A DNA stretch of 39,567 nucleotides from Candidatus Eiseniibacteriota bacterium (GCA_043819135.1 JBDRFG010000044.1:1-39567), one strand, 5' to 3'; positions 9,221-39,567 are shown, numbered from the stretch's first letter. The notes: generated from the letters alone by a model not told the origin. Translations and numbers: made by a program.

Positions 9221-9841
9221 TCAGCGAAAGAGCGCCTTGATCCGTCCCCAGTCTGCAGTCTCGACGGGAGCGCCGACATTCGGTTCGCCCGGCGTCGGCG
9301 GGAATCCGGTACCGGGCGGGCTGGCCGGGTTCAGCCCGTCGATGCAGGCCCAGTCCGGCGACCCGTCCGGAACGCGTCCCCAGGCTCTGTCGTCACCGAT
9401 GTCCGGGCCTGCGTAGCTCACCAGGTCAACCACCGTGACGAGATCTGCCGACACGAGGGTTATCGTATCCCCGCTGTTGTTCATGGAGAGCCCGTACTTC
9501 GGGTACCCGTTCTCGTCCTCCCACTGGTAGGCCTCGTTGCCGTACACGACGAAGAACTCCCCGGGTGCGAGCACTCCGCTGAATCCGAACCGCCAGCTCG
9601 AATCCGAGACGGCGTCGCGCAGCCTCCACCCGGTTACATCGACGGCCTCAGAGCCCGAGTTGAACACCTCGACCCATTCGTCTTCGAGCGAGTGGTACTC
9701 CTCGTCTCCGTCGGTCGGCGACCAGTCGCTGGCCGGATCCGGCATAAGCTCGTTCAGCACGACCTGGGCCCGCGCGGAATTCGCGAGAACCGTCAACATC
9801 AGCGACAACGCAAGCACGACAACCAACCGCACCGTTCTCAT
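9221..9841 (-). CDS. Secreted lamin-tail-domain (LTD) protein with C-terminal WGRIKALFR motif
   Basis: ATG at 9841 with AGGAGG RBS. Signal peptide (..SARA|Q), VVLNELMPDP, DEWVEVFN..VDVTGWRLRD, LSMNNSGDTITL and PTPGEPN. Ends PVETADWGRIKALFR. Confidence 0.85.
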   Translation of the reverse strand: MRTVRLVVVLALSLMLTVLANSARAQVVLNELMPDPASDWSPTDGDEEYHSLEDEWVEVFNSGSEAVDVTGWRLRDAVSDSSWRFGFSGVLAPGEFFVVYGNEAYQWEDENGYPKYGLSMNNSGDTITLVSADLVTVVDLVSYAGPDIGDDRAWGRVPDGSPDWACIDGLNPASPPGTGFPPTPGEPNVGAPVETADWGRIKALFR

Positions 9842-10111
9842 AGAGCGCACCTCCTGCGTGTGAGTGTCAGGGGCGACATTATGCAGCAGGGAGGGGCAGA
9901 CAGAGGGAGACAGCGCGTGCCGAGCGGGATGAGCGGGGCCAGATCGGGAACACGGTGATACACGGAGCGGACGCGCGCCAAGACGCACCGTCCCGCCCAG
10001 ACGAGCCTGCTGACGCGCCGTGTCAACGGAATAGACAAAGGCCAGGAGCGTCAACGAAACCCTGCAGGTTGCGTTCCACTCCCGGCCCCGATGCATGTGC
10101 CAGGTCTCCGT

Positions 10112-10146
10112 CCCGGTCTTCGGCGGCTCAGGCCGCCGAAGCCGGG
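10112..10146 (-). terminator. Stem-loop just downstream of the 975-aa gene (terminator-like)
   Basis: CCCGG(T)CTTCGGCGGC-TCAG-GCCGCCGAAG-CCGGG gives a 15-bp stem with one bulge, 17 nt past the stop codon. No U tract. Confidence 0.55.
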
Positions 10147-10162
10147 TTGGAGCCAGACAGTG

Positions 10163-13090
10163 CTACTTGAGCAGCACCATCTTTCTGCTGGTCTTCTGGT
10201 CGCCGGCCGCCAGCTTGTAGAAGTAGACGCCGCTCGCGGCGCGCTCTCCGTCGCTGGTCGTTCCGTCCCAGTGCGCCAGGTGGGCGCCGGCGTCCATGCG
10301 ACGATCGATAAGCGTGGCCACCCTGCGGCCCGCCACGTCGTAGACCTCGAGCATGACGTCGCCGGGCTCAACAAGGTTGAAGGCGATCGTCGTCTTGGGG
10401 TTGAACGGGTTCGGTATGTTCTGCGCGAGCCCGAACTTCCCGCCGAACTGATCGTCCGACACGCCTGCCGGGTTAACAGCGATGTCCTCGTTGCCGCGCG
10501 GCTCGATCTTGAAGTTGCCGTAGACGTACTGGACCACGCCCCTGACGTATACGTTGTCACCGTTCACGGGCACGTAGTCGTAGGCCGCGTAGTCGTCGAC
10601 GCGACATGTGTCTGTAGCGGTGCCGTTGGAGATGGCCCACTCGCCGAAGCCCAGGTCTTCATCGTAGACCGTGCAGTCCTCGGCGTGCACGAACACGCTC
10701 TCGTACTGCTCAGCGGACACGACGTTCTGCAGCATGCCGGTGGCGATGCTGACCGGCTCCACTTCGTCTCCCTTGACGGCCGTCAGCTGCGCCGCCTCCG
10801 GGAAGTGCAGCGCGAGTTCCGTCATTCCGAAGTACTCACTCACTTCACCGCAGGCGACTACGTAGTCACCTCTCTCGAAGGAGACCGTGCCGCTTCCGTC
10901 GTAGACCATGATGCCGTGCCAGGCTCCGGACTCTTCCTGGATGTAGAATGAGTTGTCGTTGAAGATACCGGGCTCAACCGTTACGTATCCCTCGACATTC
11001 ACGGCCAGAGTGTCCATCGGTGACGCGTCGCCGCCCGGCGGAACCTCCTGCACGCTCTGAATGGTCGCGGTGCCGACGTAGTAGCTGTAGCCACCAGTGC
11101 TCGGCCTGTCCGCGTCCATACCGACAGGAAAGACGCCGTCCCTGCACTCTACGTAGTAGTAGACGCGCGTGCCGGCCACCTGCGCCGGGATGTCACCCTC
11201 CCAGGTGCCGCTGTACTTCGCCTCGGCCATGGTCACCTGGTTGGCGTATGGCCTGGCCTTGGTGTACGACCAGTGCAGCGTGGCGGAAACGACGTCCACG
11301 TCATCACTCATCGTTGCGGAGATGGTCGTGATAACACCGGCCGCCGGCGGAACCGGCGAGTATCGCACGTCGCTGATGCGCGGCGGGCCGATGATGTCCT
11401 CATCGTACCTGGGCTGGACCTTGTACTCGTCGAAGTCATAGAGCAGAACACCGCGTAGCTCCGCGAGCACATCGAGGACCTGTGGGTTGTAGGTGTAGTA
11501 GGCCTCATCGTCGACCTTACAGGGGACGGCCGATGCGTCCTGGCAGGACCAGATGCCATAGTTATCCGGCACGACCGTCACCGTGGCGTTCTGGACGCGC
11601 ACGAGCTGACTTTCGTAACCCTCCGATGCAACGTTGGCGAAGGGGATCTGGGACGTTGTCACGTTCGTGTAGCCGTGGTTGGGGTTGCCGGAGGACACGA
11701 TGTCCATCGACCCCTCGAAGTGCCGCGTGATCTCAGTCATCCCGTAGTATTCTGACACCCGTCCGCAGAACGTGACCAGGTCACCCTCCTGCACCGGTGT
11801 AGGCGTTCCACCCATGTAGCAGGCGATGCCGTGGAACTCGCCCGTGTCATCGTGGACGTAGAACATGTTATCTTCCATGATGCCGGTCGCCATGGTGACG
11901 ATACCCTGGACGTTCACCGGCTGTCCTACGTAGGCCGACGCGTCGCCACCGGCGGTCACGAACTGGACGTTGTAGATCGGCGTAATGCCAACGCGGTAGG
12001 AATACGGACCGCTCATGGCCCCGGCCGGGTAGTTCATCGTGGCGCCGAGATTGTCGACCGCACGCATGAAGTAGTCCACGATGTCGCCGTCGTAGACCCC
12101 CGCCGCAGGAATGGCGCCGGTGTAGAGCGAATCGCTCGTCGTCGCTGCGACCTTGGCCCAGCTGCCCTCGTTGACCCTGTAGTAGACCATCACGGAGTCT
12201 ATAGAACCATCATCGGTCACGTACGCGCTGATCATCGTGTCGTCGTCCTCGTTCGGCGGTATCGGCGCGTAGGTCAGAGTGCGGATCCACGGAGGCGTGT
12301 TCGCGACGTTCATGGCACCAGGTGTCGGCGCCTGCAACGTCCAGTCGTTGATGCTCATGTCCGTGTCGGTGCCGGACGAGTCGCGTCCCAGAGTGTTGCC
12401 GAGGAAGGGAATGCCCTGGTAAGCGTTATCGTCGGCGCCGTCAACCGAGAACGCGCCCACGCACGGATCGGTCGCGCACTGGGACGGGTCGATGTACTCG
12501 ATCGCGTCGACCAGATTCGCCGGACCGCTGCTCGGGTCGGCGTCGTACAGATAGACGATGTCCGAGTCGCTCGTCGGGACCGAGCAGATGACGCCGTAGC
12601 CTTTGCCGCCGACCAGCTGGATCTCGTCGCTGTAGTTCGTCGCTATATCATCAACGACAATGAGCATGTTGACGGCGGCGGGGCCGTCGTAGTCGTAGGC
12701 GAAGGTCGGATCGAACATCTCGAAGTCCGCGTCGAACCCGAACTCCCACAGGAACGAGTCATCGTTCGGGGGGTCGATGCTGTCGTCACCGTCCTTGGTA
12801 ACGATCTTGTAGCCACCGGCCGGGATGTAGATCGGCGTCCCGACAGGGAACTGCCAGAGATCTTCGCCTCCGCAGGTCTCGTCGTACTCAACACCCGTCA
12901 ACACCCAGCCTTGGATGTCAATGGGACCGGCCGTCGGGTTGTAGAGCTCGATGAACTCCGAGCCGTCGTAGAAGCCGTTGCCATCGCAGTAGATCTCGTT
13001 GATCACAACGTTGTCGCCCGCCGGAGTGGCCAAGGCCACGCCGAAGGCAAACACGAGGACCACCAGGATCATGATGGTTAGTCTCGTCAT
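10163..13090 (-). CDS. Large secreted modular protein: LTD + 2x(Ig-like + paired ExeM/YhcR-type OB folds) + FlgD-Ig/T9SS type-A-like CTD
   Basis: Signal peptide; VVINEIY..SEFIELYNP (LTD); repeated TPIYNVQ..VNVQGIVT..FYVHD..GDLV...GRVSEYYGMTEI and ATIQSVQ..VNVEGYVT..FYIQE..GDYV...GEVSEYFGMTEL; C-terminus LAQNIPNPFNPKTTI..YDVAGRRV..WDG..SGVYFY..KMVLLK. Confidence 0.82.
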   Translation of the reverse strand: MTRLTIMILVVLVFAFGVALATPAGDNVVINEIYCDGNGFYDGSEFIELYNPTAGPIDIQGWVLTGVEYDETCGGEDLWQFPVGTPIYIPAGGYKIVTKDGDDSIDPPNDDSFLWEFGFDADFEMFDPTFAYDYDGPAAVNMLIVVDDIATNYSDEIQLVGGKGYGVICSVPTSDSDIVYLYDADPSSGPANLVDAIEYIDPSQCATDPCVGAFSVDGADDNAYQGIPFLGNTLGRDSSGTDTDMSINDWTLQAPTPGAMNVANTPPWIRTLTYAPIPPNEDDDTMISAYVTDDGSIDSVMVYYRVNEGSWAKVAATTSDSLYTGAIPAAGVYDGDIVDYFMRAVDNLGATMNYPAGAMSGPYSYRVGITPIYNVQFVTAGGDASAYVGQPVNVQGIVTMATGIMEDNMFYVHDDTGEFHGIACYMGGTPTPVQEGDLVTFCGRVSEYYGMTEITRHFEGSMDIVSSGNPNHGYTNVTTSQIPFANVASEGYESQLVRVQNATVTVVPDNYGIWSCQDASAVPCKVDDEAYYTYNPQVLDVLAELRGVLLYDFDEYKVQPRYDEDIIGPPRISDVRYSPVPPAAGVITTISATMSDDVDVVSATLHWSYTKARPYANQVTMAEAKYSGTWEGDIPAQVAGTRVYYYVECRDGVFPVGMDADRPSTGGYSYYVGTATIQSVQEVPPGGDASPMDTLAVNVEGYVTVEPGIFNDNSFYIQEESGAWHGIMVYDGSGTVSFERGDYVVACGEVSEYFGMTELALHFPEAAQLTAVKGDEVEPVSIATGMLQNVVSAEQYESVFVHAEDCTVYDEDLGFGEWAISNGTATDTCRVDDYAAYDYVPVNGDNVYVRGVVQYVYGNFKIEPRGNEDIAVNPAGVSDDQFGGKFGLAQNIPNPFNPKTTIAFNLVEPGDVMLEVYDVAGRRVATLIDRRMDAGAHLAHWDGTTSDGERAASGVYFYKLAAGDQKTSRKMVLLK
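10481..12295 (-). repeat. Intragenic tandem duplication of about 303 aa (Ig-like + OB + OB), diverged
   Basis: Unit 1 is 12295-11387 (PPWIRTLTYAPIPP...KVQPRYDEDIIG). Unit 2 is 11386-10481 (PPRISDVRYSPVPP...KIEPRGNEDI). Shared motifs: GGDAS, HGI, VSEY.GMTE, E.YES..V and C.VDD.A.Y.Y.P. Confidence 0.8.
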
Positions 13091-13259
13091 CTCAGGTCCC
13101 CCCTATCAAAAGGACACTCCGTCTCAATGCTGCCGGGATCGCTAGGAACACGTGTCGTCTCGCCGTCGCACCTCCTTTGTGCCCACAGATAGATATCCGC
13201 TCCGCGTCAGGCAATACGATGCCCTCGGCGCGCTCTAGCGGGTTGATTTGCGTCACGTC

Positions 13260-13288
13260 ATTATATCACATTCAATATTGCTTGTCCA
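13260..13288 (-). promoter_or_regulatory. Strong putative sigma70 promoter (extended -10) for the 975-aa gene
   Basis: Minus strand reads TGGACA, 17 nt, TATAAT, with TGn directly before the -10 (TGTGATATAAT). It sits in an AT-rich island, and the spacer contains the palindrome CAATATTG. Confidence 0.78.
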
Positions 13289-13315
13289 GCCCTCTGGGGA
13301 TTCCGGAACATACGA

Positions 13316-13346
13316 AGGGCCCGCGAGCCGCTCAGCCCCGGGCCCT
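13316..13346 (-). terminator. Putative intrinsic terminator ending the 29061-13428 operon
   Basis: Minus strand AGGGCCCG-GGGC...GCTC-G-CGGGCCCT followed by TCGTATGTT, about 80 nt after the 5'-nucleotidase stop. Confidence 0.6.
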
Positions 13347-13427
13347 CCTGATGATTCGCACGATCGCTCTGCTCTGCCGCGATCCGACTGGCCTGATCAC
13401 GCGGGGGACCAGGCCTGGTGACGCTTT

Positions 13428-15179
13428 CTATTCGTATGCTCCTCCCGATACGGACTCCGGCGGAGCGAGCGGCTCCATGCCCTCCATGGCGGCCGCGAGG
13501 GCCGGATCCAGTTCCGAGGTGTCGTCGCGTGCCCAACGCCCGTCCATGGTGTTCCCTATGGGCGAATGACGCTCAATATAGTGCACGGCGGCGTCCATAC
13601 ACGTGGTGGAGGTCCTCATCTTCCTGTCCTCCGGCACCAGTGGCAGCATGTAGAGACCAGCGTTGCCGGTCGCGAGGAAGTCGGATGTCACCACCTTGTA
13701 GATTCTGTCCGGATCCCACGGTTCACCCCCGACCTCGAAGTAGGTTATGCGGTCGTAATCGGGTCGCGTCTTGTTGAAGATGACCTTGCCACCCGACATG
13801 TACACGCCGTGGTGCCCGCCGCTGACGCGGAACTCAATGACTTCCTTCAAGAGCCGCCCGTCCATCTCGAAGACCATGAGGCTGTTGCCGAACGGAAGAA
13901 CGCGGAAGACCTGACGCGGAGTCACGGAACCCGCGGGGATCTCGTCCCTGATGCCGCCCAGGTTGGTGAACGCGAAGTCGGCCGATACCTCCTCACGCAT
14001 GGCGTCACAGACGAGGTTACCCATGCGGGTCTCGCCCTCCCCGCCCCTTGTGAGGTCGACATCCGTCTGGCCTATTACCCGGTCCATGCCCTGTTCGGCC
14101 TCTTCCACGCGAGCCTCGACCATGGCGGCCATCTCTGCTTCGGGCCACCATTCGTCCTCGAAGAGCGTGATGAGTGCGCCTCTGTAGTCAGACAGTTCGT
14201 AGCCCGCAAGCGTCTTCGTTTCTGCATCGATCAGGAGATCGACGTGTCCAAGGCCCGAGCCCCTGCCGTAAGTCTGGAAGTGAAGCGTGTGATTTGTGGG
14301 CTCCTCCCACGCCTTGTCGAAGCCCTTGTGGATGTGCCCCCCGAAGAAGGCATCGATTCCAGGAGTGTAATGCGAGATCTCCATCGCGCTGGGGCCCCAC
14401 TTGCTCTCCTCCAGCGGCTCTCGCGTCTCCTCGGCCTCCCGCTCCTCCTCCTCGTTTATCATCTCCTCGTAGCCGACCTCCGGATCGTACGGTAGACCCA
14501 TGTGACCACTCACGAGGACGATGTCGGCGCCCTTCTCGCGCACCTCACGAACGTACTTCTTGGCGGTCTCAATCTCGTCCAGGAACGCTACCGGCTCGAC
14601 GTGGGCCGGAAACGCCATCTTCGGTGTGTCGGTGGTCGTCAGACCTATGATCGCCACCTTGATACCACCGTAGTCCTTGATGACGTAGGGCTCGACGTAC
14701 TCGACGGGCTCCTGCGAGTCGGCCCAGACAAGATTCGCCGAAAGCACGGGCATCCTAGAGTATTCGATGAGATGCCACAGGTTCTCGAAACCCTCGTCGA
14801 AATCGTGATTGCCAACCGTCCAGAGGTCGACCCCGAGCTGATTGAAGTACTCGATGACCGGTTCGCCATCGTTGTAGTTGCCGACGGGCGTTCCCTGGAA
14901 TATGTCACCCTGATCGATGACGAGAACGTATCCGCCCTCTCTCTCAGCACGCTCTCTGAGCGCAGCTATGTAAGTGGCGGCCGACGCCCCCCCGCCCAGC
15001 GGCGGTGGAAACTCCCTGTTCATGAACGTCGCGCCGGTTCTGTCTATGCCTCCGTGGATGTCGTTCGTGAAGACGACCGACAGCCTGACGAGTCCATCCC
15101 CACCCGACGCGGGCAGTGCTGCCGCCACCACCAGGGCGGCCGCCAACAGTATCGCTGCCGGGCATCTGACGCTTCTCAT
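13428..15179 (-). CDS. Secreted/periplasmic 5'-nucleotidase (UshA/CpdB-type metallophosphoesterase + 5'-nucleotidase C-terminal domain)
   Basis: Signal peptide; metal motifs FTNDIHG, DQGDIFQGT, GNHDFD, GHMG and GGHIH; C-terminal NLGGIR and LPFGN. ATG at 15179 with AAGGAG RBS. Confidence 0.93.
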   Translation of the reverse strand: MRSVRCPAAILLAAALVVAAALPASGGDGLVRLSVVFTNDIHGGIDRTGATFMNREFPPPLGGGASAATYIAALRERAEREGGYVLVIDQGDIFQGTPVGNYNDGEPVIEYFNQLGVDLWTVGNHDFDEGFENLWHLIEYSRMPVLSANLVWADSQEPVEYVEPYVIKDYGGIKVAIIGLTTTDTPKMAFPAHVEPVAFLDEIETAKKYVREVREKGADIVLVSGHMGLPYDPEVGYEEMINEEEEREAEETREPLEESKWGPSAMEISHYTPGIDAFFGGHIHKGFDKAWEEPTNHTLHFQTYGRGSGLGHVDLLIDAETKTLAGYELSDYRGALITLFEDEWWPEAEMAAMVEARVEEAEQGMDRVIGQTDVDLTRGGEGETRMGNLVCDAMREEVSADFAFTNLGGIRDEIPAGSVTPRQVFRVLPFGNSLMVFEMDGRLLKEVIEFRVSGGHHGVYMSGGKVIFNKTRPDYDRITYFEVGGEPWDPDRIYKVVTSDFLATGNAGLYMLPLVPEDRKMRTSTTCMDAAVHYIERHSPIGNTMDGRWARDDTSELDPALAAAMEGMEPLAPPESVSGGAYE

Positions 15180-15285
15180 CGTTGCCTGCTCCTTTCCCGC
15201 TACGCCAGACAAGGCTCCTCCGCCCGTCCCGGCGGCGGGAACATCTCCGAGCCCCCCGCCCCTGTGGCGGCAGGCAGTAGCCTCT

Positions 15286-16548
15286 CTAGAACGTATGCAT
15301 GACGGTTGCCATGGCGAGCGTTGTGGTCTCGCGTATGCGTCCGCCTTCTATGTCGTACTCCCTTAGACCAACCTGCCCACCTATGTCGACCCTGACACCG
15401 GCAACATCGAGACCCAGGCCGATGCTGAACGCCGCGGTCGTGTTCTTCTCGTCCGCGTACGAAGGCATGTACATGAAGCCGAAACGGGCGAACGAGGTGT
15501 CGAAGAACCCGTGCTCGACACCCAGGCGGTAGACCAGCGTGTCGTCCAGCTCGGGATCAACTTCCTCCGTGACGCCCCGGAGAGCGGGAACGTGCTCTCT
15601 GAAGTCCGACCAGCGCGCGTACTCGACGTCGCAGCTGACCGTCGTCGTGAGCAGGTTGCGTGGATGGTACTCCAGGCCCAGCGCAAGCACGCCCGGGTAG
15701 TCATACTTGAAGTCTCGCGACGAGCTTTCCTCCGAGCCAACGGCGCTCATCTTGTATTCGCCTTCCAGTGAGAACGGCGCGCGATAGACCGCGGCAACGT
15801 CCACCCTGTGGAAGCGCTCAAAGAGCACGCCGAGCGTGAAACGGGTCCCGGTCGCGTCGTTGTATTCGGCGGACGAGCTCACGTCCTCTTCGGCGGAGTC
15901 CGCTGGGTACACCCATCTCTCACTGACTTCGTAATCGCCGCGCAGAAAATCAACGCCGAGTCCCACGAAGACCTCCGGCGCCACCTCCTGTCCCAGCGCC
16001 ACCGAAAAGGCGTCGATCCCACCGTCGCCCTCGGTGTAGTAGTCGTAGAGGATCTTGTCGGGCGGCTCGGTCTGGAAGTCGGGGTCCCTGTACTGCACGT
16101 GATAGTCGTAGCTCATGTCGATGCGCGGAACGTACCCGACAGCGACCACGGGCGCCCACTCGAACTCCGAGAACTCGTTCGTGGGGTTGAACGCCACCGC
16201 GCCGACGTAACGATCGTAGACCTCGGTGTTCAGGGCGTACGTGTTGTATCCGATGACGCCGTCGAAGCTGTCGTGGAGAGGCGTTTCTCTCGCCTCCTCC
16301 GCGAGGACAAGTATCCCCGTCACGGAGACATCGATGCCCTCCGTCTTGCTGATCAGCGCGGGATTGAGAGCCATCCCTGCCGCTCCCTCTATCGAAGCGA
16401 TCCCCGCACCTCCCATCGCCAGAGACCTGGCGTCGTACGTCGACATCACATAGCCGTAGCGCTCCCACTCTGCGAGCGTGAACGCGCCCGCGCTTCCCGC
16501 GAGCGCCACAAGCGCAATGACTGCTGTCGCAGCCGTCAGGCGACGCAT
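15286..16548 (-). CDS. Outer-membrane beta-barrel, FadL/OmpP1/PorV superfamily
   Basis: Signal peptide; DARSLAMGGAGIA...ALNPALI N-terminal hatch motif; amphipathic beta strands; C-terminal Phe (VMHTF). ATG at 16548 with GGAGG RBS. Confidence 0.78.
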   Translation of the reverse strand: MRRLTAATAVIALVALAGSAGAFTLAEWERYGYVMSTYDARSLAMGGAGIASIEGAAGMALNPALISKTEGIDVSVTGILVLAEEARETPLHDSFDGVIGYNTYALNTEVYDRYVGAVAFNPTNEFSEFEWAPVVAVGYVPRIDMSYDYHVQYRDPDFQTEPPDKILYDYYTEGDGGIDAFSVALGQEVAPEVFVGLGVDFLRGDYEVSERWVYPADSAEEDVSSSAEYNDATGTRFTLGVLFERFHRVDVAAVYRAPFSLEGEYKMSAVGSEESSSRDFKYDYPGVLALGLEYHPRNLLTTTVSCDVEYARWSDFREHVPALRGVTEEVDPELDDTLVYRLGVEHGFFDTSFARFGFMYMPSYADEKNTTAAFSIGLGLDVAGVRVDIGGQVGLREYDIEGGRIRETTTLAMATVMHTF

Positions 16549-16631
16549 CTCTACCCTCCTCCTCTTCTGATTCCCTGCTGACATCGTGGATTCCATGGCC
16601 TTGTCCTCAAACACGCCCCGCCCCCGCCCGG

Positions 16632-19115: not shown

Positions 19116-19138
19116 CGTGCCTCCCCTGGTTCACTCTG

Positions 19139-19167: not shown

Positions 19168-19183
19168 GGTCGCCCGGACCGAC

Positions 19184-20065: not shown

Positions 20066-20125
20066 ATGTACCTCCTTCGGTGCTGAGACCATTCGTGTCA
20101 TCAACGTTCTTACCATCCGTTCCCG

Positions 20126-29138: not shown

Positions 29139-29167
29139 ATTGTAGGCTCATTCAGGCCGGAAGTCAA
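29139..29167 (-). promoter_or_regulatory. Putative sigma70 promoter heading the core 29061-13428 operon
   Basis: Minus strand reads TTGACT (29167-29162), 17 nt, TACAAT (29144-29139), about 78 nt upstream of the ATG at 29061. Confidence 0.75.
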
Positions 29168-31291: not shown

Positions 31292-31303
31292 GTGTTCCTC
31301 CTG

Positions 31304-32206
31304 TCAGTAGGGCTTCCCGCTCGCCGCGGGAGGACGGGCGCGGCCGATGACTCCGACGAGCGCGACCATGGTGAGAACATAGGGGATCATCTGGACGAAC
31401 TGGGTAGGGACCGCCTGGCCCTGGAGCCCCATCTGCACCGCCTCCGCGTAGCCGAAGAGCAGACACGCCATCAGCGCGCCGACGGGATTCCACTTCCCGA
31501 ATATCATGGCCGCGAGCGCGATGAATCCTCTTCCGGCCGACATGTTCTTCACGAACTGATGAGTATTGAGCGCCAGGAACGCGCCTCCCAACCCGGCGAA
31601 CGCCCCGCTCATCAGCACTCCGGCAAACCGCATCGCGCGAACGCTGACGCCGAGCGTGTCGACGGCCTCGGGGTGCTCGCCGGTCGCCCTCAGCCTGAGC
31701 CCGAACGGAGTCTTGAAGAGCACCACGTGCGAGATGGCCACGAGCGCCAGAGCCACGTAGACGAGCGGCGGGTAGTGTCCTACGACGGCGTTCACGCCGT
31801 GCGCAGCGGGTCCCCAGCTCTCGGGAAGCGTCCAGTGCGCCATGCCCTGGACGGGCGGGGAATTGGCGGAACTGCCCCAGATGATCCACGTGAGGAACTG
31901 CGTGAGCCCCATCGCCAGGATGTTGATGGCCACACCGCTCACGATCTGATCGGCCTTGAACACTATGGACACGACCGCGTGAATGAGGGAGATGAGCATG
32001 CCGGCGAACACGCCGGCGAATACGCCGGCCCACGGATTGCCCGTGTAGAAGGTCGCGACGATGCTCGCGAACGCCCCCGTCAGGAGGATGCCCTCGAGAG
32101 CGATATTGACAACGCCGGAGCGCTCCGAGAAGAGCCCGCCGAGCGCGGCCAGTATGAGCGGTGTGGCCATCCTGAGGGCCGAGTCGAGCACCGCCAGTTC
32201 GAACAT
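31304..32206 (-). CDS. Nucleoside ABC transporter permease (NupQ/NupC-like, BPD_transp_2)
   Basis: ATPLILAALGGLFSERSGVVNIALEG, TPFGLRLRATGEHP, GRGFIALAAMIFGKW and IPYVLT. ATG at 32206 lies 8 nt after GGAGG (alternative GTG at 32215). Confidence 0.9.
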   Translation of the reverse strand: MFELAVLDSALRMATPLILAALGGLFSERSGVVNIALEGILLTGAFASIVATFYTGNPWAGVFAGVFAGMLISLIHAVVSIVFKADQIVSGVAINILAMGLTQFLTWIIWGSSANSPPVQGMAHWTLPESWGPAAHGVNAVVGHYPPLVYVALALVAISHVVLFKTPFGLRLRATGEHPEAVDTLGVSVRAMRFAGVLMSGAFAGLGGAFLALNTHQFVKNMSAGRGFIALAAMIFGKWNPVGALMACLLFGYAEAVQMGLQGQAVPTQFVQMIPYVLTMVALVGVIGRARPPAASGKPY

Positions 32207-32251
32207 CCCTTCCACCTCCCGCCGGAACCGGTTTGCGTCACGGGTCGCGTG

Positions 32252-33853
32252 CTAGCCGGACCGTGCTCGCCGCTTTCCGAGTATCTCCCTGAAACCGTCC
32301 CTCGCGGCCCGAACCGCCTCGCGGAGTTCACCTCTGCAGAAGAAGCGAGCTGCCGCTGCATAGACGATTGCTCCCACGGCCGCAGACGCAGCGATCACGC
32401 CCGCCCGCGCCGCCAGCGAGTCGGCCACGTCCATCCCGCTGAGACCACGCGCCAGGAAAAAGAGGGTCGCCGCCATGACCGCGGTCGCGAGAACCGTCCC
32501 TCCGAACGCACGGAAGAGCTTGCGATAGCGCCCGTGCCTGATGACCGGAGGAAGAACGATGAGGAAGATCCCAAGTTTGAACACGTGCGACACCGACGTC
32601 GCAAGCGCGATGCCGGAGTGCTTGTACGCGCCTATCAGCCCGAACACGAGCGCGATCTTGAAGACCAGCCTGACGAGCCCAGCGATCACCGGCGTCTTAG
32701 TGTTCTTCATCGCGATGAAGCCCGCGGCCATGATGCTGGTGAGGCCCAGCGCCCAGATGGTCGGCGTGTACAGCAGGAGCGCCGAGACTGTGTAGCGAAC
32801 CGACTCCTCTCCAAAGGCGCCACGCTGGAAGATCAACCGGACGAACGGCTCGCCGAGCATGGCCATCCCCACCGAGACGGGCAGCAGTACGAAGAACGCC
32901 AGCCGCATCGAAGTTATGATCTTCTCGCCCAGCTCGTCGTACTGCTCCCGCGCCGCCAGACGGGAGAACAGCGGGAACAGGACGACGGAGAACGCACCCA
33001 CGAGTATTTCCTTCGGCAGCTCGATGAGGCGCAGCGCGTACGCCAGGCCCGAGATGCTGCCCTCAGCGAGTCTCGAAGCGAAGATCCTGTCGATGACGTC
33101 GTCCAGTTTCGCTCCTGCCATTCCTATGAGCAGAGGCAAAGCCAGCCGCACCACGCCCCTGAACATCGGGTTCGAGAAGTCGATGCGGAGACGGAGGTTC
33201 TTACGAAGACGCCAGACGGCCGGCCACATCACTGCGGCGTGCGCCGCGCTACCGAGTACGACACCGTAAGCGAGTCCCTTGATGCCGTGCGTAGTGGTGA
33301 GCGTCAACGCGGCCAGGATGATCATGAGGTTGCTCAGCGGCTGCGTGGCTGCGGGAAGCGCGAAATTGCCGTGCACGTGAAGCACGTGTGTCAGGATGCC
33401 CGCGCCGGCCCCGATGAAGAGCGACAGCAGCATGATGCGGGTGAGGCTGACGGCCACCGCCTGGTTCTCGAGATCGAAGCCTGGGGCCACGACGGAGACG
33501 AGCCACGGAGCCGCGACCATGGCGACGACCGCGAGAGCGACGGCCACGAGCATGAAGTTCGCAATGAAGATGCCGGCGGCGCGCCAGGCCTCGTCCTCCC
33601 CCTGCTTCTCGAGCGCTTCCGTGAAGAACGGGACAAATCCGGCCCGCACCGGGGTACGCAGCCAGTGCGTGACTAGGGTGGGTATGGTGAAGGCCACAAA
33701 GAAGGCGTCCATCGAGGCCGTGGTCCCGAACTTCGAGGCCACGATGACGTCCTTGAACAGGCCGAGCGCCTTGACTACGACGGCGAATCCGATCACCCAC
33801 ACAGCGGAGACGATGACCCCGGCGGCACTGCTTGTTGCCCGGTTCTTGGTCAA
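32252..33853 (-). CDS. murJ: MurJ/MviN lipid II flippase family (MOP exporter)
   Basis: TTG at 33853 after AAGGAGG overlaps the permease stop. K.LGLFKD...A..FG...DAFFVAFTIP, IDRIFAS.L.EGSIS.L.YA.RL..LP, LIFQRGAF, F.AMKNTKTP and GIALATS. Confidence 0.85.
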   Translation of the reverse strand: MTKNRATSSAAGVIVSAVWVIGFAVVVKALGLFKDVIVASKFGTTASMDAFFVAFTIPTLVTHWLRTPVRAGFVPFFTEALEKQGEDEAWRAAGIFIANFMLVAVALAVVAMVAAPWLVSVVAPGFDLENQAVAVSLTRIMLLSLFIGAGAGILTHVLHVHGNFALPAATQPLSNLMIILAALTLTTTHGIKGLAYGVVLGSAAHAAVMWPAVWRLRKNLRLRIDFSNPMFRGVVRLALPLLIGMAGAKLDDVIDRIFASRLAEGSISGLAYALRLIELPKEILVGAFSVVLFPLFSRLAAREQYDELGEKIITSMRLAFFVLLPVSVGMAMLGEPFVRLIFQRGAFGEESVRYTVSALLLYTPTIWALGLTSIMAAGFIAMKNTKTPVIAGLVRLVFKIALVFGLIGAYKHSGIALATSVSHVFKLGIFLIVLPPVIRHGRYRKLFRAFGGTVLATAVMAATLFFLARGLSGMDVADSLAARAGVIAASAAVGAIVYAAAARFFCRGELREAVRAARDGFREILGKRRARSG

Positions 33854-34971
33854 GAGGCCTCCTTCACAGCTCCAGGCGCGGGCGAGGCTGTTCCGGCGGC
33901 GCGGCCCTCGCGCGCGGCCGCCCTTCTGGCGAACACCTCGTTCCCGACTACCACCAGAATTATGGTTATTGCCTGCAGCACCAGAATGAGCTCCCGCGGC
34001 ACGTCGGTGAAAACATCGATCTCGAGCGCGCCTGTGTTCAGCACGCCGAAGAGGAGCGCGGCCAGGAGAACGCCGAGCGGCGTGTTCTTTCCCAGAAGCG
34101 CGACCGCGATGCCCATGAATCCGAGACCGCTCGAGAAGTTGTCGAGGAACCGGTGACGGAATCCCATGACCTCGTTCGTCGCTACCAGGCCGGCGAAGGC
34201 CCCCGAGAGGACCATCGCCAGCACAACGGTGCGGCGCACGTTGATGCCGGCGTACTCCGCCGCAGCCGCGTTCATGCCCACGGCGCGGATCTCGTAGCCC
34301 AGGTTGGTCCTGTAGAGGATGTACCAGGCGAGCCACACGGCGGCCAGGGCGAGTACTATGGAGAAGTTGAGGGGATTGGCCTGCGGCAACGGGATACCGG
34401 CGCGCGACAGGGGTCCGGCCAATCGCGGCAGGTGGCCGGCGAGCACTATCTCCGATGTCTGGGGTGTCATCTGCCCGGGTTCGCGCAGCATGTTAATGAC
34501 GAAGTAGCTTGTCACCCCGACGGCAATGAAGTTCATCATGATCGTATTGATGACCTCGTGCACGCCGAAGCGCGCCTTCAGGAGCCCGGGCACGGCGGCC
34601 CACGCGGCTCCTCCCGCCGCCGACGCGAGAACGAGCAGAGGAATGAGCAGCACGGCCGGAAGTCCCCCGAACGCGAGACCGGCGAGCGTGCACACGAAGG
34701 CCCCGATGTAGAGCTGACCCTCGCCGCCGATGTTGAAGAGCCCGGCGCGGAACGCGAACGCCACCGCCAGCCCAGTGAAGATGAGCGGCACCGCGTTGAA
34801 GAGCACGAGTCCGATCGCATCGATGCTCCCGAACGCGCCACGGAACAGGATGGAGTAGATCCTGAACGGATTCTCGCCGATGGCCGTCACGACCAGGCCT
34901 CCGACGAGAAAGGCCGCGGCGACCGCGACAACCGGGGAGAGCAATTGGGATAGCTTTGCGAACCGGCTCAT
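33850..34971 (-). CDS. Nucleoside ABC transporter permease (NupP/NupB-like)
   Basis: PLIFTGLAVAFAFRAGLFNIGGEGQ, EVINTIMMNF, GYEIRAVGMN..AAEYAGI and GFMGIAVALLG. Confidence 0.92.
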   Translation of the reverse strand: MSRFAKLSQLLSPVVAVAAAFLVGGLVVTAIGENPFRIYSILFRGAFGSIDAIGLVLFNAVPLIFTGLAVAFAFRAGLFNIGGEGQLYIGAFVCTLAGLAFGGLPAVLLIPLLVLASAAGGAAWAAVPGLLKARFGVHEVINTIMMNFIAVGVTSYFVINMLREPGQMTPQTSEIVLAGHLPRLAGPLSRAGIPLPQANPLNFSIVLALAAVWLAWYILYRTNLGYEIRAVGMNAAAAEYAGINVRRTVVLAMVLSGAFAGLVATNEVMGFRHRFLDNFSSGLGFMGIAVALLGKNTPLGVLLAALLFGVLNTGALEIDVFTDVPRELILVLQAITIILVVVGNEVFARRAAAREGRAAGTASPAPGAVKEAS

Positions 34972-36554
34972 TGCACTCTCGCCCCCGCGCGTCCGTCGGT
35001 CGCGTCACCGGTGGCCCGATCCGCACCGCCGGCCGCCTGACCCGCGCCACCCGTCATGGCGACGCCGAGTTCCTCCTCCCCGACCGCCCCACCCTCGAAC
35101 TCCGCGACGATCCTCCCGCCGAACATGACCGCTATGCGGTCGGAGAGCGTCATTATCTCCGTGAGTTCGGCTGATATCAGGAGTATCGCAGCGCCCCGGT
35201 CCCTCATTCGAAGCAGGCTCGTGTGAACGAATTCGATGGCGCCGATGTCCACGCCTCTGGTGGGCTGCGAGGCGATCAGAAGAGCGGGCCCGCCGTCGAA
35301 CTCCCGGGCCACGATAAGTTTCTGCTGGTTCCCACCCGACAGATGTCCGGCATCAGCATCGGGATCCGCGGGTCTCAGGTCGTGCTCTTCTATCAGACGC
35401 TCCGCGTGGACGCGAATCGCGTCGAGAGAGAGCAGCCCGCGGCTGGAGAACGGCCGACGGTGATGCCTGCCGAGAACGAGGTTCTCTGCGATGGTGAAGC
35501 CCAACACGAGCCCGCGCGCCTGGCGGTCTTCCGGGATGTGAGCGACCCCCAGGTTGCGAACCTGACGCGGAGACCTGTTCGTCGTCTCGTTGCCGCACAC
35601 GGCAACGCTCCCGGCGCTCGCCTTCTTGAGACCCGCGATGACCTCTACGAGCTCGGTCTGACCGTTGCCCTGAACACCGGCTATCCCAAGGACCTCTCCG
35701 GAACGCACCTCGAGGTTGATACCGTCGAGCACGAGCGAGCCCTTGCGGCCCGCCGCGGACAACCCGCGAACTTGAAGTACCGGGCCACCGGGGCTGGCCT
35801 CCTCCCTGGTGACACGAAGGAGGACGTCCCGTCCGACCATCATTCTCGCGAGTTCTTCCTTCGTCGTCCCCGCGGCGGGCACGACACCGGCCACGCGACC
35901 GTCCCGCATGACCGTGATGCGGTCGGCCAGTTCGAGGACCTCCTCGAGCTTGTGAGTAATGAAGACGATCGTTCGCCCGGCGTCGCGGAGGGCACGGAGG
36001 ATAGCGAAGAGTTCGCGCACTTCTGCCGGAGTCAGGACGCCCGTGGGCTCGTCGAGAATGAGGATCTTCGCGCCGCGATAGAGCACCTTCACGATCTCGA
36101 CGCGCTGCTCCAGCCCCACCGAGAGGTTCTCAATGAGTTCGTCCGGGTCGAGCGAAAGGCCGTACTCCGACGATAGCTGTCTGACTCGCTCCCGCGCGGC
36201 CGCCGTATCGATCAGGCACCCGCAGCGCACCGGCTCAGTACCCAGCACGACGTTCTCGGCAACCGTCAACGTGTCCACGAGCATGAAGTGCTGGTGGACC
36301 ATCCCGACACCTTCGCGGATCGCATCGGATGGGCGGTGGCCGGTGAGTTCCTTGCCCCACAGCAGAATCTGTCCTGCGTCGGGCGGCGTCAGGCCGTAGA
36401 GCACCTTCATGATGGTGGACTTGCCGGCGCCGTTCTCGCCGACGATCGCGTGGATCTCCCCGTCTTTCACATCGAGGTCCACACCGTCGTTTGCGAGGAC
36501 GCGCGGATAGCGCTTCGTGATGCCTCGCATCTGGACCGCGTGGTGTTCCGACAT
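34968..36554 (-). CDS. Nucleoside/sugar ABC transporter ATP-binding protein (NupO/NupA-like, tandem ABC domains)
   Basis: [45 protein letters not shown] and QPTRGVD. Confidence 0.93.
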
Positions 36555-36643
36555 GAGAAGGGTGTCTCCCCCCGAGAAGCGCACGGGTGTGCTTATCGCC
36601 GTCGCGCGCCCGGGGCGGGCGCCGCGCCGTTCGCTCTGGCCTG

Positions 36644-37669
36644 CTATTCCCTGGGCACCGACACCGCTCCGTCGATGATCTTCTGTCTCGCCTCTTCTAC
36701 CGTCGCAAGCATCTCTTCGGTCAGGAGAGCCTCGTTGTACTCGTCCACGGCGTAGCCCACGCCGTCATCGGCGAGGCCAAACTCCCTGAGTCCACCCTGG
36801 AACTGCCCATCTACGACGGACTTGACCGTCATGAACACGGCATTGTCTACCCTCTTTATCATGCTGGTCAACACGTTCCCGGGGGCCATGTAGTTCTGAT
36901 TCGAATCGACGCCTATCGCCTGTCTGTTGACCTCGCGAGCCGCCTCGATCACGCCGTTGCCGGTGCTGCCGGCCGCGTGATAAATGACGTCGGCGCCGCG
37001 CCCGAACTGCAAGAGCGCGAGTTCCTTTCCCTTCGCGGGGTCGGCGAACGCCTGAGGTGTCGTCCCCGCGTAGGCGACCGTCACGGAGGCCGCCGGATTG
37101 GCGTACTTCGCGCCGGCGACGTAGCCTGCCTCGAACTTGTGAATCAGTGGGATGTCCATGCCTCCGACGAAGCCGATTCGCCCGGTCTCGCTGAACAGTC
37201 CCGCAATGACGCCGACCAGGAACGAGCCTTCCTCCTCCCTGAACCGGAGGCCCGCGAGGTTCTGCGGAAGTACCTCTCCCGGCCTGGCGTCGAAGTCCAC
37301 GCACGCGAACTTCACGTCAGGATAGTCGGCCGCGACCTTCCGCATGGCATCGCTGAAGAGGAAACCGACACCGATTATGACGTCGTACCTGGCCTGGGCG
37401 AGTTTCCTGAGACCGGTTTCCCTGTCGGCGTCCTGCCCGGGCTCGAACTCCGTGTGCTCGACGTCGAACTGGTCCGCCGCGTACAGAAGCCCTCTGTAGG
37501 CGGAGTCGTTGAACGATTTGTCACCCTTTCCGCCGACATCGAACACCATTCCGACCCTGATGGCGCCCTCGGCGCCGGCCGGCTGCTCCGTGCTGCAGCT
37601 CACGAGCACGGCCCCCATTGCGAGGACGATCAGGAACGCTATCGACCGGAGCGCGATGATCCTGCTCAT
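36644..37669 (-). CDS. BMP-family nucleoside-binding lipoprotein (NupN/PnrA/TmpC-like)
   Basis: Lipobox LVS|C; GDKSFN, F.EEEGSFL.G, GFVGG, GADVIYHAAG, IGVDSNQ and TSMIKRVD. Confidence 0.92.
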   Translation of the reverse strand: MSRIIALRSIAFLIVLAMGAVLVSCSTEQPAGAEGAIRVGMVFDVGGKGDKSFNDSAYRGLLYAADQFDVEHTEFEPGQDADRETGLRKLAQARYDVIIGVGFLFSDAMRKVAADYPDVKFACVDFDARPGEVLPQNLAGLRFREEEGSFLVGVIAGLFSETGRIGFVGGMDIPLIHKFEAGYVAGAKYANPAASVTVAYAGTTPQAFADPAKGKELALLQFGRGADVIYHAAGSTGNGVIEAAREVNRQAIGVDSNQNYMAPGNVLTSMIKRVDNAVFMTVKSVVDGQFQGGLREFGLADDGVGYAVDEYNEALLTEEMLATVEEARQKIIDGAVSVPRE

Positions 37670-37684
37670 GATTCTCCCCTTCCG

Positions 37685-38926
37685 TTACTTCCGTGCCGAC
37701 GCGATGCCGACGTCATCCGGGACGCCGCCCGCGCCCGCGGTCTCGGCCGCATCGAGTATCTGCCTTAGTGAACCGTCCAGGCGGGCCCGCCGCATGAGAA
37801 CCAGAAAGGCGCCCAGGCCCACCAACATCACGAGAGAACCACCCTTGAAAACGAAGTCAAGCCCGAAGATTCCTTCGAAGAAACCGCCCCCCATGGGTCC
37901 CAGGATCAGGCCCATACTCATCCCGCTGTTGAACACGGCCATGACCGTACCCATTCCATTGAACCTCCTCCCCGCCATGGCCGCCATGCCTATCGCAGCG
38001 GGGAACCCGATCGCGCTGACCACTCCCGTCGCTATCTGCAGGAAGACAAGGTGTGTGATCGTTCTGCAGTACGGAATTGCGAAGATGGCCAGAGCGCTTC
38101 CAAGCATGCCCAACGACATGAGGAGAGGCTTGTTGACGCGGTCGGCGAGCCGGCCGAACGGGATCTGCAGGAATCCGGCGAGCAGGATGTGCGTCGCCAG
38201 CAGGACTCCGATGACCGATATCGATGCGCCTCGCGACTCCGCCACGAACGGAAGGAACGGAACGACCACGCCTCTGCCGAACGCAACGGTCGTGCGGAAG
38301 ACAACGAGTGCGACTACCACTCCGTGGCCGAGGACACTCCTGACTGGAGCCCGATTGGCCCACTTCTCCTTGTGGATGCCGATCTCGGGAAGGAAGATAA
38401 GGACCATGAGGAACGCGACGGCGCTCAGGATGCCCATGACGTAGAAGGGGACCGTCATGCCGAACCGGTCGGCGAGCGGCCCCCCCAGGAGCGGGCCAAT
38501 GCCGAAGGCGGTGAACGTGGAGACCGTGAAGGTCCCCATGAACGAACTCTCCCGACCCTCGGGCGAGATGTCCCCGATGTAGGCCTGAGCTACGGGAATG
38601 ACCATGCCGGCGGACGCGCCGTGAAGCGACCTGACGAGGATGAGCTGCCCCGCGGTCGAGGCCCAGATGTAGAGCAGAGAGAATCCGGAGAACGCAAGGA
38701 GGCCGCAGGCGAGGAACGCCTTCCGCCCAAGCTTGTCGGAGAAGCGCCCGATGAACGGTGTCAGAAGGAACCGCGCCATCGCGAATCCGGAGAATATCAT
38801 CCCGAGCTGGAGACCCGACGCGCCCAGGTCGCGCGCGTACAACGGCAGAAGGGGGCCGATGAATCCGACCCCCATCGTAGAGGCGAAAACAGCCATGAAG
38901 AGAACGATGTAGACGCGTCTGTGCAT
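37685..38926 (-). CDS. MFS transporter (DHA1-like)
   Basis: Motif A GRFSDKLGRK with its repeat GRLADRVNK, GPLLGG and about 12 TM segments. ATG at 38926 with GGAG RBS. Confidence 0.88.
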   Translation of the reverse strand: MHRRVYIVLFMAVFASTMGVGFIGPLLPLYARDLGASGLQLGMIFSGFAMARFLLTPFIGRFSDKLGRKAFLACGLLAFSGFSLLYIWASTAGQLILVRSLHGASAGMVIPVAQAYIGDISPEGRESSFMGTFTVSTFTAFGIGPLLGGPLADRFGMTVPFYVMGILSAVAFLMVLIFLPEIGIHKEKWANRAPVRSVLGHGVVVALVVFRTTVAFGRGVVVPFLPFVAESRGASISVIGVLLATHILLAGFLQIPFGRLADRVNKPLLMSLGMLGSALAIFAIPYCRTITHLVFLQIATGVVSAIGFPAAIGMAAMAGRRFNGMGTVMAVFNSGMSMGLILGPMGGGFFEGIFGLDFVFKGGSLVMLVGLGAFLVLMRRARLDGSLRQILDAAETAGAGGVPDDVGIASARK

Positions 38927-39020
38927 GCGTTCTCCGGGTTCGGATCCGGTCGAGTGTGGGCCGCGCCGCACGCCCCGGGGGGCGCACCGCGACCGGTCTT
39001 GACCGGCAGGTCACTGCCGC

Positions 39021-39567
39021 CTAGACGAAGAGGCTCGTCAGTTCGAAGGCGTCGACGTCGACGAGTCCCTTGTCGGTCAGTTTGAGCGACGGAATGACCG
39101 GCAGCGCCAGGAACGACATCGCCATGAACGGGTCGTCGGTGCGTGAGCCCAGCCTCCGCGCGGCCTTCCTCACCTTGTCGAGCCCGGCGACGACCTCGCC
39201 CAGGGTGCCCTCGGACATCAGGCCGGCCACGGGAAGCGGCATTCCCGCCAGGAGCTTCCCGTCACGCACTACCGAGAGGCCGCCTCGCATTTTGGAGATC
39301 TCGACGACCGCCGCCATCATGTCGTCGCTCGACGTCCCGATGACAACGATGTTGTGCGAGTCGTGCGATACGGAACTGGCGATGGCGCCCTTCTTCAGCC
39401 CGAATCCCCTACCGAGACCGAGTCCTATGTTGTCGCTGGCGAGGTGGCGCTCAACGACCGCGATCTTGAGAACGTCCCGCTCGGTATCGGACACGACGAA
39501 CCCGTTCTCGATCGTGGCGGGCTCGACCGTCGCCTCGGTGATGATCTGGTCGGGCACGAGGTTGATG
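39021..39567 (-). CDS. ade: Adenine deaminase, C-terminal part (5' end outside window)
   Basis: KIAVVERH, GAIASSVSHDSHNIVVIG, LPVAGLMS and PFMAMSFLALPVIPSLKLTDKGLVDV. Confidence 0.93.
   Translation of the reverse strand, partial: INLVPDQIITEATVEPATIENGFVVSDTERDVLKIAVVERHLASDNIGLGLGRGFGLKKGAIASSVSHDSHNIVVIGTSSDDMMAAVVEISKMRGGLSVVRDGKLLAGMPLPVAGLMSEGTLGEVVAGLDKVRKAARRLGSRTDDPFMAMSFLALPVIPSLKLTDKGLVDVDAFELTSLFV

Follow-up and report, generated by a model that had tools for sequence, protein, structure and literature searches.

A candidate SusC/D-free oligonucleotide feeding locus with type IX secretion parts in a Candidatus Eiseniibacteriota genome

Introduction

Loci that feed bacteria on nucleic acids are known as a concept. 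In Bacteroides thetaiotaomicron, ddbABCDEF applies to DNA the logic of polysaccharide utilisation loci (PULs) and ends in deaminated bases; it includes a TonB-dependent transporter and three nucleases on lipoprotein or signal peptidase I (SPI) signals, and its binding protein DdbD is a tandem-OB DUF5689 protein resembling HIN-200 (10.1101/2025.03.18.642099). DNA-degradation loci of Candidatus Izemoplasma cluster nucleases, phosphohydrolases, ATP-binding cassette (ABC) importers and an LTD/nucleic-acid-binding protein; an outer-membrane step is not described for them (PMC8289736). Riemerella anatipestifer, an organism of the Fibrobacteres-Chlorobi-Bacteroidetes (FCB) group, has a DUF5689 surface protein, a TonB-receptor-like barrel and an HhH protein, predicted periplasmic, implicated in DNA entry (RA0C_RS04915/04920/02645; PMC8459023). 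Nucleases of the ExeM, Xds and YhcR types carry LTD and OB accessory modules, and in ExeM and Xds the OB domains are required and the LTD is dispensable (PMC6085458, PMC6746945). Here we analyse a stretch of 39,567 nucleotides, called the window, from a Candidatus Eiseniibacteriota bacterium (GCA_043819135.1 JBDRFG010000044.1:1-39567); it is the complete contig C44 of the source genome, G000 (2.7 Mb, 92% complete), and its positions 9221-39567 carry a locus that probably serves oligonucleotide feeding by other means.

Compared with ddb, the locus has cargo with C-terminal domains (CTDs) of type IX secretion system (T9SS) type, a candidate channel made of HhH domains and a barrel, and attached inner-membrane ABC importers; the HIN-200 neighbours of its OB folds, and weak DUF5689 matches, run parallel to DdbD. 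No TonB-dependent transporter with an adjacent binding lipoprotein was found among the window proteins, and the single PF00593 match of G000 lies on another contig; with no such transporter in it, the locus is not a member of the SusC/D PUL or the Ddb type, and would work like them. Nucleases reside within the Izemoplasma loci, and those of the ExeM group are enzymes; the proteins described here carry the same accessory modules without a catalytic domain. T9SS shuttles of the PorV/PorQ kind are alike in the PorV-family barrel beside CTD cargo, in the CTD fold as in PorU and PorZ, and in the presence of SprA in the genome; the locus differs in scores below the PorV, PorQ and BamG cut-offs and in a distinct PIVVGxxL tail, the pairing here being proposed from gene adjacency and the co-occurring tail motif. 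The sequence-only reading from which this work started knew of no described system of this composition. As a gene set the architecture was indeed found undescribed in the literature searched, a search which left most subscription papers and bioRxiv supplements outside its coverage, so that the ddb supplement could bear on the comparison of subtypes; the main text of two publications on related phyla mentions no nuclease, nucleoside or secretion system. That statement does not extend to nucleic-acid PUL-like loci as such, which ddbABCDEF and Izemoplasma exemplify with other parts.

Results

A scan of GTDB for the cassette gave 379 confirmed stretches, and the tallies rest on the best 80 of the 379. 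Exclusion of 25 close loci (68% identity or more) left 55 distant loci, and denominators comprise only loci with enough flank. The 55 are best matches, mutually related and non-independent, three of them from one assembly; they bear the labels Eisenbacteria, Zixibacteria, Gemmatimonadota, KSB1, Calditrichota, Krumholzibacteriota, Latescibacterota and others. A PorV-like gene lies upstream of the gene of the HhH barrel in 53/53 distant loci, and a FadL-like barrel gene downstream of it in 42/47. The gene of an OB/CTD protein was found in 43 of 51 loci (7 of the 8 misses carried a weaker blastp label), and the 5'-nucleotidase in 34 of 38. The ComEC-type metallo-beta-lactamase (MBL) occurs in 11 of 55, in 5 of them inside the cassette, between the FadL-like barrel and the 5'-nucleotidase, and the downstream OB protein (10163-13090 type) in 9/34. 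According to these tallies five genes recur across many FCB lineages; the true core is thus made of the OB/CTD protein, the PorV-like barrel, the HhH barrel of about 24 strands, the FadL-like barrel and the 5'-nucleotidase, and the rest is a lineage-level extension. Within the family, all ten genes of the operon that holds this core were found in 13/13 regions spanning it, and the HhH barrel gene in 24/24 genomes, as against 5/16 other genomes sampled. Synteny in relatives, which the sequence-only reading had proposed as a check, is conserved in the family and in many FCB lineages. One assembly holds three copies of the core cassette (L098, L104, L106), whose cargo reaches 2,217 aa and six LTDs; they may reflect an expansion, or a bin of mixed origin.

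The AlphaFold2 model of the HhH barrel (89 sequences) has a predicted local distance difference test (pLDDT) score of 85.7; in it, two HhH domains precede a barrel with about 24 long strands (manual count). Domain 1 superposes on ComEA 8dss (Z 11.6, root-mean-square deviation 1.4, 64 residues aligned), in keeping with an (HhH)2 fold, and the PF12836 match of the protein is above cut-off. The HHH_3 profile matched 16/16 barrel proteins checked (15 hand-picked, 1 from a locus), 14 above cut-off. The barrel portion is usher-sized; fold searches matched ushers and porins only generically, and found no close solved homologue of it among the listed families. A barrel-only profile collects 2,188 representatives, and the closest named relatives bear the submitters' labels Ca. 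Eisenbacteria and, in one case, Ca. Effluviviaceae. By barrel topology the HhH domains, placed before strand 1, should face the periplasm or lie inside the lumen. A predicted complex of the HhH and PorV-like barrels scored 0.00, which counts neither way. In P0189, a homologue of 1,251 aa, the HhH barrel is joined to TPR repeats. A second cassette of G000 (L152:1-4385), next to an alpha-glucan locus on contig C75, encodes an LTD-CTD protein, a PorV-like barrel and a short HhH barrel, with nucleotide genes absent beside it; the short barrel is homologous to the long one (hhalign 99.9), and its family, among the matches listed, is mainly found in KSB1, Calditrichota, Ignavibacteria and Kapaibacterium.

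Three outer-membrane barrels had been called from the sequence, and three are predicted here: FadL/BamG-like, HhH and PorV-like. The NF033709 match of the PorV-like barrel, just short of its cut-off, spans the full length; the FadL-like barrel falls below the cut-offs of BamG (57 vs 250 bits) and PorV_fam (42 vs 90 bits). The four secreted LTD/OB proteins were likewise recovered, as one LTD-only protein (9221-9841), two with LTD, OB and CTD (10163-13090, 20126-23170) and one with two OB folds and a CTD (23201-24292). With an Ig-like CTD (by fold in 23201-24292, by TIGR04183 in 10163-13090) and with SprA over its cut-off in G000, the CTD-bearing proteins are T9SS substrates by the rule of CTD plus translocon. 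The OB folds of 23201-24292 match those of HIN-200, RPA, POT1, MCM and aminoacyl-tRNA synthetases (Z 10-12), and also YgiW, which is not a nucleic-acid protein (Z 9.7); its Ig domain matches the CTDs of PorU and PorZ (6za2, 5m11). The protein at 10163-13090 resembles the N-terminal region of ExeM (E 7e-17, below cut-off), and no catalytic domain was found in it with Pfam or NCBIfam. The tail P-I-V-V-G-x-x-L closes 49/50 proteins encoded directly upstream of the PorV-like gene, and in G000 it occurs in 1 of 77 CTD-like matches, that one in this locus, which suggests that the cargo and the PorV-like barrel form a dedicated cargo-anchor pair. Cargo proteins measure from about 350 to 2,200 aa and carry PKD, Ig and LTD repeats; weak DUF5689 matches were found among homologues, and one locus (L123) has an MBL+OB fusion downstream. 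A tandem-OB profile hits four open reading frames (ORFs) in G000, three of this locus and a secreted LTD-OB-Endonuclease I, whose OBs are strongly acidic. An Endonuclease I match was found in 23/26 family genomes.

Side by side with these results stand some observations on the G000 secretome. The LTD-OB-Endonuclease I-CTD protein (L149:10348-13164, contig C50) is unlinked to the locus. At least 13 ORFs are PorV-like, and one matches TonB-dependent receptors. A WGxIK-like tail (9221-9250 in the window) ends 54 ORFs, and appears to be an additional sorting signal alongside the type-A CTD.

The CUT1 binding protein had been read as part of a Ugp-like importer. A UgpB-related binding protein and two permeases are there, but no ATPase gene resides in the window, and the protein scores 118.5 bits against the UgpB equivalog, whose cut-off is 411. 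Over its full length, the solved structure that it matches best is the U3G binder of the PDB 7C0F series (7c0x entries, E 1e-42, a moderate similarity), 13 orders ahead of UgpB, the UgpB and GPC binders lying at 5e-29 to 3e-27. 7C0F binds the U3G dinucleotide in a pocket of 1,291 A3, against 315-320 for UgpB; in the UgpB/GPC/U3G clade the phosphate ligands are two Tyr and two Ser, and in UgpB two Trp clamp the glycerol (PMC12718374). The same Tyr/Ser set is found here: among 12 rows, E. coli UgpB included, Y65 and Y346 are kept in 12/12, S144 and S270 in 11/12. The glycerol-clamp W195 is replaced by Ala or Ser in 11/11, W192 depends on the alignment register, and R397, beside an alignment gap, is probably kept. 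As a control, the binding protein of an alpha-glucan locus of G000 matches maltose binders first, and 7C0F only at E 1e-13. By sequence, then, the CUT1 protein is nearest to a dinucleotide (U3G) binder, not to UgpB, with di- or mononucleotides as its putative ligands. A MalK-type ATPase is encoded on another contig of G000, and in genome G028 just downstream of the cassette.

The 5'-nucleotidase, as announced, is UshA-type with intact metal and catalytic residues: D41, H43, D84, N116, H117, D120, H217 and H252, which we take to be the dimetal ligands and the catalytic His-Asp, are kept in 12/12 rows, E. coli UshA included. In the base pocket F429 and N431 are kept in 12/12, R410 in 11/12, and F/Y498 is kept; the protein falls below the UshA cut-off of NCBIfam. 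A signal peptide and the absence of a CTD make it probably periplasmic. The call of a ComEC-type MBL hydrolase was borne out by the HYHADH motif and by ComEC MBL domains as best solved matches, and the lipoprotein is a candidate periplasmic nuclease or phosphodiesterase. A depolymerisation step within the locus, proposed on sequence, is not supported as first put, as the locus has no proven enzyme for it; the MBL is a candidate, and Endonuclease I is unlinked. The second exported phosphoesterase was confirmed as a metallophosphoesterase; of the 13 other family regions that cover its site, 7 have it.

All genes in 9221-39567 lie on the minus strand, as had been noticed, but do not form one transcript. 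Conserved promoters at 29167-29139 and before 10163-13090 split the run into at least three units, the upstream Ade-MFS-BMP group, a 10-gene operon, and the downstream OB protein. Promoter-like sites are no more frequent than in shuffled sequence, so that support for them comes from conservation. The promoter claimed at 29139-29167 proved real by this measure: counting the window, it is found upstream of the MBL gene in 15/15 regions, and in none of 15 to 18 regions each upstream of five internal core genes (permA, OB, PorV, barrel and 5'-nucleotidase). The promoter at 13288-13260 is matched in 16/19 regions, the 3 misses being regions without the 10163-13090 gene. The terminator proposed at 13316-13346 survives as a strong hairpin, not as a canonical signal, because a U-run is absent and the hairpin is not among the calls of a terminator scan. 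Relatives have hairpins of unrelated sequence, seen without a shuffle control. RNA evidence came to one run (share 0.07) with 15 short pieces as contigs, too little to indicate level, strand or operon, and was set aside.

Annotation of the window (Pfam on 30 proteins, NCBIfam on 22) is collected in Table 1. The domain check confirmed the listed genes, with corrections: MurJ had been missed, and the CUT1 ATPase is absent.

Table 1. Features of the locus, with positions in the window and the basis of each assignment
Feature	Position	Strand	Basis or remark
Small exported LTD protein, WGxIK-type C-terminal motif, peripheral	9221-9841	-	PF00932; without OB-profile match
LTD, two tandem-OB pairs and standard type-A T9SS CTD; own promoter	10163-13090	-	TIGR04183 above cut-off
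Sigma70-type promoter TGGACA-17-TATAAT, extended -10	13260-13288	-	conserved; drives 10163-13090 separately
GC-rich hairpin, possible terminator	13316-13346	-	after 5'-nucleotidase gene; z -3.35
UshA-type 5'-nucleotidase	13428-15179	-	Pfam; signal peptide (by eye), without CTD
FadL/BamG/PorV-related outer-membrane barrel	15286-16548	-	PF03349 above cut-off
Two N-terminal ComEA-fold HhH domains and beta-barrel of about 24 strands, candidate channel	16632-19115	-	AlphaFold2 (AF2), PF12836
PorV/PorQ-like barrel, candidate surface anchor for upstream OB proteins	19184-20065	-	NF033709 85.7 vs cut-off 90
OB, LTD, Ig, tandem OB and dedicated CTD, tail PIVVGIKLD	20126-23170	-	Pfam, OB profile
Two OB folds and CTD, tail PIVVGIGLTD	23201-24292	-	AF2 pLDDT 90.3
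CUT1 lipoprotein binding protein, phosphodiester clade	24380-25660	-	PDB 7c0x series best match
CUT1 permease, UgpE-like, below cut-off	25694-26710	-	Pfam, NCBIfam
CUT1 permease, UgpA-like, below cut-off	26790-27764	-	Pfam, NCBIfam
Lipoprotein, FN3-like domain and ComEC-type MBL	27787-29061	-	HYHADH motif
Promoter TTGACT-17-TACAAT	29139-29167	-	opens 10-gene core; conserved
Exported purple-acid-phosphatase-like metallophosphoesterase, variable	29249-31291	-	Pfam, motif
BMP/Nup-type ABC permease	31304-32215	-	PF02653
MurJ lipid II flippase	32252-33853	-	TIGR01695 292.7 vs 235.55
BMP/Nup-type ABC permease	33850-34971	-	PF02653
BMP/Nup-type ABC ATPase	34968-36554	-	Pfam, NCBIfam
BMP/PnrA-family lipoprotein, probable nucleoside binder	36644-37669	-	PF02608
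Major facilitator superfamily (MFS) transporter	37685-38926	-	generic DHA-type efflux families, all below cut-off
Adenine deaminase (Ade), C-terminal part, cut by contig end	39021-39567	-	Pfam, contig search

The BMP importer was confirmed as a lipoprotein, an ATPase and two permeases; solved relatives of the lipoprotein include BmpA, BmpD and TmpC, and its probable ligands are nucleosides. The MurJ gene between the two permeases is the only copy found in G000. It occurs in 11/12 family regions and is absent at the site in G006 and from the BMP operons of G044-G047, on which grounds it was rejected as a component of the system. The MFS transporter was confirmed as such; nucleoside specificity was not seen in it with Pfam or NCBIfam. 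In G024 and G044-G046 no such gene stands between Ade and BMP. MurJ, the MFS transporter and the second phosphoesterase are dispensable or passengers. The BMP ABC genes, with Ade or an amidohydrolase, lie upstream of the MBL in G044-G046, a linkage not seen in G047. In two loci (L145:12227-15448 of G044, L146:7833-11180 of G046) an inserted tricorn protease gene separates BMP from its ATPase.

Adenine deaminase had been assigned to purine salvage. Its C-terminal part does reside at the contig end, and the N-terminal part on contig C168, behind a carbamate kinase gene and one like ornithine transcarbamylase (OTCase); the enzyme looks linked to catabolism rather than to salvage. In 7/8 family regions fetched, an XdhB-like gene, two OTCase-like genes and carbamate kinase lie upstream of Ade, and in the eighth carbamate kinase only. 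In G010 the cluster (L168:4693-17974) also includes XdhC, a MobA-like gene, an amidohydrolase, a pyridoxal phosphate (PLP) enzyme and transketolase; L168, L164 and L146 all exhibit amidohydrolase, PLP enzyme, Xdh-type subunits, a split transketolase, the OTCase-like pair, carbamate kinase and Ade. The anaerobic 2,8-dioxopurine cluster similarly holds Xdh-type subunits, an amidohydrolase, a PLP enzyme, a carbamoyltransferase and carbamate kinase, of which the last two make ATP in the anaerobic purine pathway (10.1101/2025.04.24.650524); the likeness includes the place upstream of Ade. In contrast to that cluster, the carbamoyltransferases of G019 and G046 are below the YgeW cut-off, those of G019 fitting every equivalog poorly, YgeY is above cut-off in G046 only, with no match in G000 (92% complete), and the cluster is outside the window. 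G000 encodes in addition rpiB-deoC-pyrimidine nucleoside phosphorylase and a further nucleoside phosphorylase. Purine auxotrophy was considered as a driver and rejected: PurC, of de novo purine synthesis, is found in 23/26 family genomes, which favours catabolism over the rescue of an auxotroph.

The rest of the window carries other genes. Positions 38-2294 (plus strand) hold a fragment of an acyl-CoA synthetase (ATP-grasp) and a DRTGG/Pta-N-like gene, and positions 2310-9145 a peptidoglycan-recycling cluster (GH3 NagZ-like, AnmK, asparaginase-2, MurQ-like, DUF7544, Na/Ca exchanger), which has a conserved promoter to itself (9145-9116, 10/10 regions) and is syntenic throughout the family. Rfam and ARAGORN found nothing over the window.

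Discussion

The locus is probably a SusC/D-free oligonucleotide feeding system made of type IX secretion parts, a function assigned from sequences and structure models. The proposal of nucleic-acid utilisation gains from synteny, from the likeness to a dinucleotide binder, from OB modules shared, within G000, only with a secreted DNase, and from the purine-catabolism-like cluster upstream; dsDNA binding by the HhH domains, in-locus depolymerisation and salvage are not supported as first put. From domain content, operon limits, gene order, intact active-site motifs, SprA and the unlinked Endonuclease I, all read from sequences or models, we infer the following steps. The T9SS would export the LTD-OB-Endonuclease I, which would cut environmental DNA, and the non-catalytic OB/LTD proteins, which the adjacent PorV-like barrel would hold on the surface via the PIVVGxxL tail. 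There they would gather fragments, perhaps through divalent cations, as the acidity of the OB proteins suggests. Oligonucleotides would then pass the outer membrane by the barrel of about 24 strands, with the HhH domains acting as gate or trap, and be trimmed in the periplasm by the MBL lipoprotein and the 5'-nucleotidase. The CUT1 ABC system, with a shared MalK-type ATPase, would import di- or mononucleotides, and the BMP system nucleosides. Phosphorylases, DeoC and the cluster of Ade, Xdh, carbamoyltransferase, carbamate kinase and transketolase would eventually catabolise sugar and base to yield C, N, P and ATP.

Several findings weigh against this scheme. A proven nuclease is absent from the locus, and nuclease families were not found in the OB/LTD proteins scanned (47 proteins, about 36 of them cargo). 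The OB modules of 23201-24292 have a net charge of about -10 each, and the conserved charged residues of the barrel are evenly split (about 19 basic, about 21 acidic, manual count). In Vibrio ComEA K62/K63 are needed, and K63E abolishes transformation (PMC3879209). At the K63-equivalent, assigned by eye, K/R is found in 3/89 sequences in HhH domain 1, which is net acidic, and in 0/89 in domain 2, where Asp occurs in 85/89. With the G-x-K-K lysine pair absent, the claim that these domains bind dsDNA as ComEA does is not transferable. R148, W156, Y158 and R162 (mature numbering) are retained in domain 2, which is net basic and may therefore contact bases by a different mode, or serve as a plug. 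In the 5'-nucleotidase D504 is not retained, and conservation of the R375/R379 pair is doubtful; enzymes of the UshA type are promiscuous, and the gene is absent from 4/38 distant loci. A CUT1 binding protein is found within 10 kb in 10/31 distant loci, the upstream carbamoyltransferases are below the YgeW cut-off in G019 and G046, and the second, short-barrel cassette does without neighbouring nucleotide genes.

The HhH barrel might instead serve natural transformation, replacing PilQ and ComEA and feeding ComEC, with the nucleotidase and the transporters recycling the degraded strand. Full ComEC is found in 23/26 family genomes and DprA is present; the short HhH barrels are homologous, an HhH and a DUF5689 protein are essential to transformation in Riemerella (PMC8459023), and ddb loci are related to the Riemerella system (10.1101/2025.03.18.642099). 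Yet we regard this explanation as improbable, because G000 has a stand-alone ComEA with an intact motif and its competence genes lie elsewhere in the genome, comEC, dprA and comF were not seen among the recurrent neighbours, the fixed partner is the 5'-nucleotidase, and the ComEA lysines are absent from the HhH domains. It is similarly unlikely that the same transport logic scavenges other phosphodiesters, such as glycerophosphodiesters, teichoic acid or lipid head groups, NAD or cyclic dinucleotides. UshA-type and ComEC-type MBL enzymes include hydrolases of compounds other than DNA, which would suit such substrates, as would the peptidoglycan-recycling cluster and MurJ next door in the family. 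The binding protein belongs to the UgpB/GPC/U3G clade (PMC12718374), but the U3G binder is 13 orders ahead of UgpB, and W195 is lost; OB modules in common with Endonuclease I only, and linked BMP, Ade and Xdh-like genes, also point to nucleic acids.

A third explanation sees in the locus a T9SS module for surface display or envelope assembly, in which the barrels would anchor or assemble acidic LTD/OB proteins of adhesin or S-layer type, the HhH domains would be a structural plug, and the nucleotide genes co-regulated neighbours. The constancy of the PorV-like gene (53/53) and of the dedicated CTD (49/50), next to cargo so variable in size and domains, the degenerate HhH motifs and the weak BamG match of the FadL-like barrel all suit it, and the short-barrel cassette without nucleotide genes keeps it alive. 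Retention of the 5'-nucleotidase in 34/38 loci across lineages, and re-insertion of the MBL within the cassette in 5 loci, are hard to account for in these terms, as is an alpha-glucan locus with substrate-matched modules on cargo, barrel and ABC system; we assign the display explanation a low probability.

The alpha-glucan locus (L148:633-18227, contig C75 of G000) has the same layout, with a glucan-binding CTD protein of 1,800 aa, a PorV-like barrel and a probable barrel of 524 aa. CBM48 is found at the N-terminus of a further probable barrel and in a lipoprotein, and a maltose-type ABC and a debranching enzyme complete the set. With hhalign, homology between the barrels of this locus and the HhH barrel was not detected (probability 0.7 and 0.2), so that the parallel is one of layout only; it shows that the layout tracks a polymer. 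It is possible, if doubtful, that FCB lineages outside Bacteroidota harbour a second, TonB-independent class of polymer-utilisation systems, in which a T9SS binding protein would sit on its own PorV-like barrel, a large barrel with a periplasmic substrate-binding module (HhH for nucleic acid, CBM48 for alpha-glucan) would gate or ratchet oligomers, and a matched ABC system would import them.

Extracellular DNA is a major pool of P, N and C in sediments, with few known consumers (PMC8289736). The cassette may be used as a marker to predict DNA consumers in uncultured FCB lineages (379 GTDB stretches, 2,188 barrel representatives). The HhH barrel, related neither to PilQ nor to TonB-dependent receptors, is a testable candidate channel for nucleic acids, and the predictions on the binding protein and the OB modules are testable with purified proteins, culture-free. 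The twin alpha-glucan locus suggests a general design rule, under which the binding modules of other loci of this kind could reveal the substrates. If the TonB-independent class exists, the HhH barrel would represent a novel type of oligonucleotide channel, and the bacteria carrying it would be unrecognised DNA recyclers with an attached ATP-yielding purine pathway.

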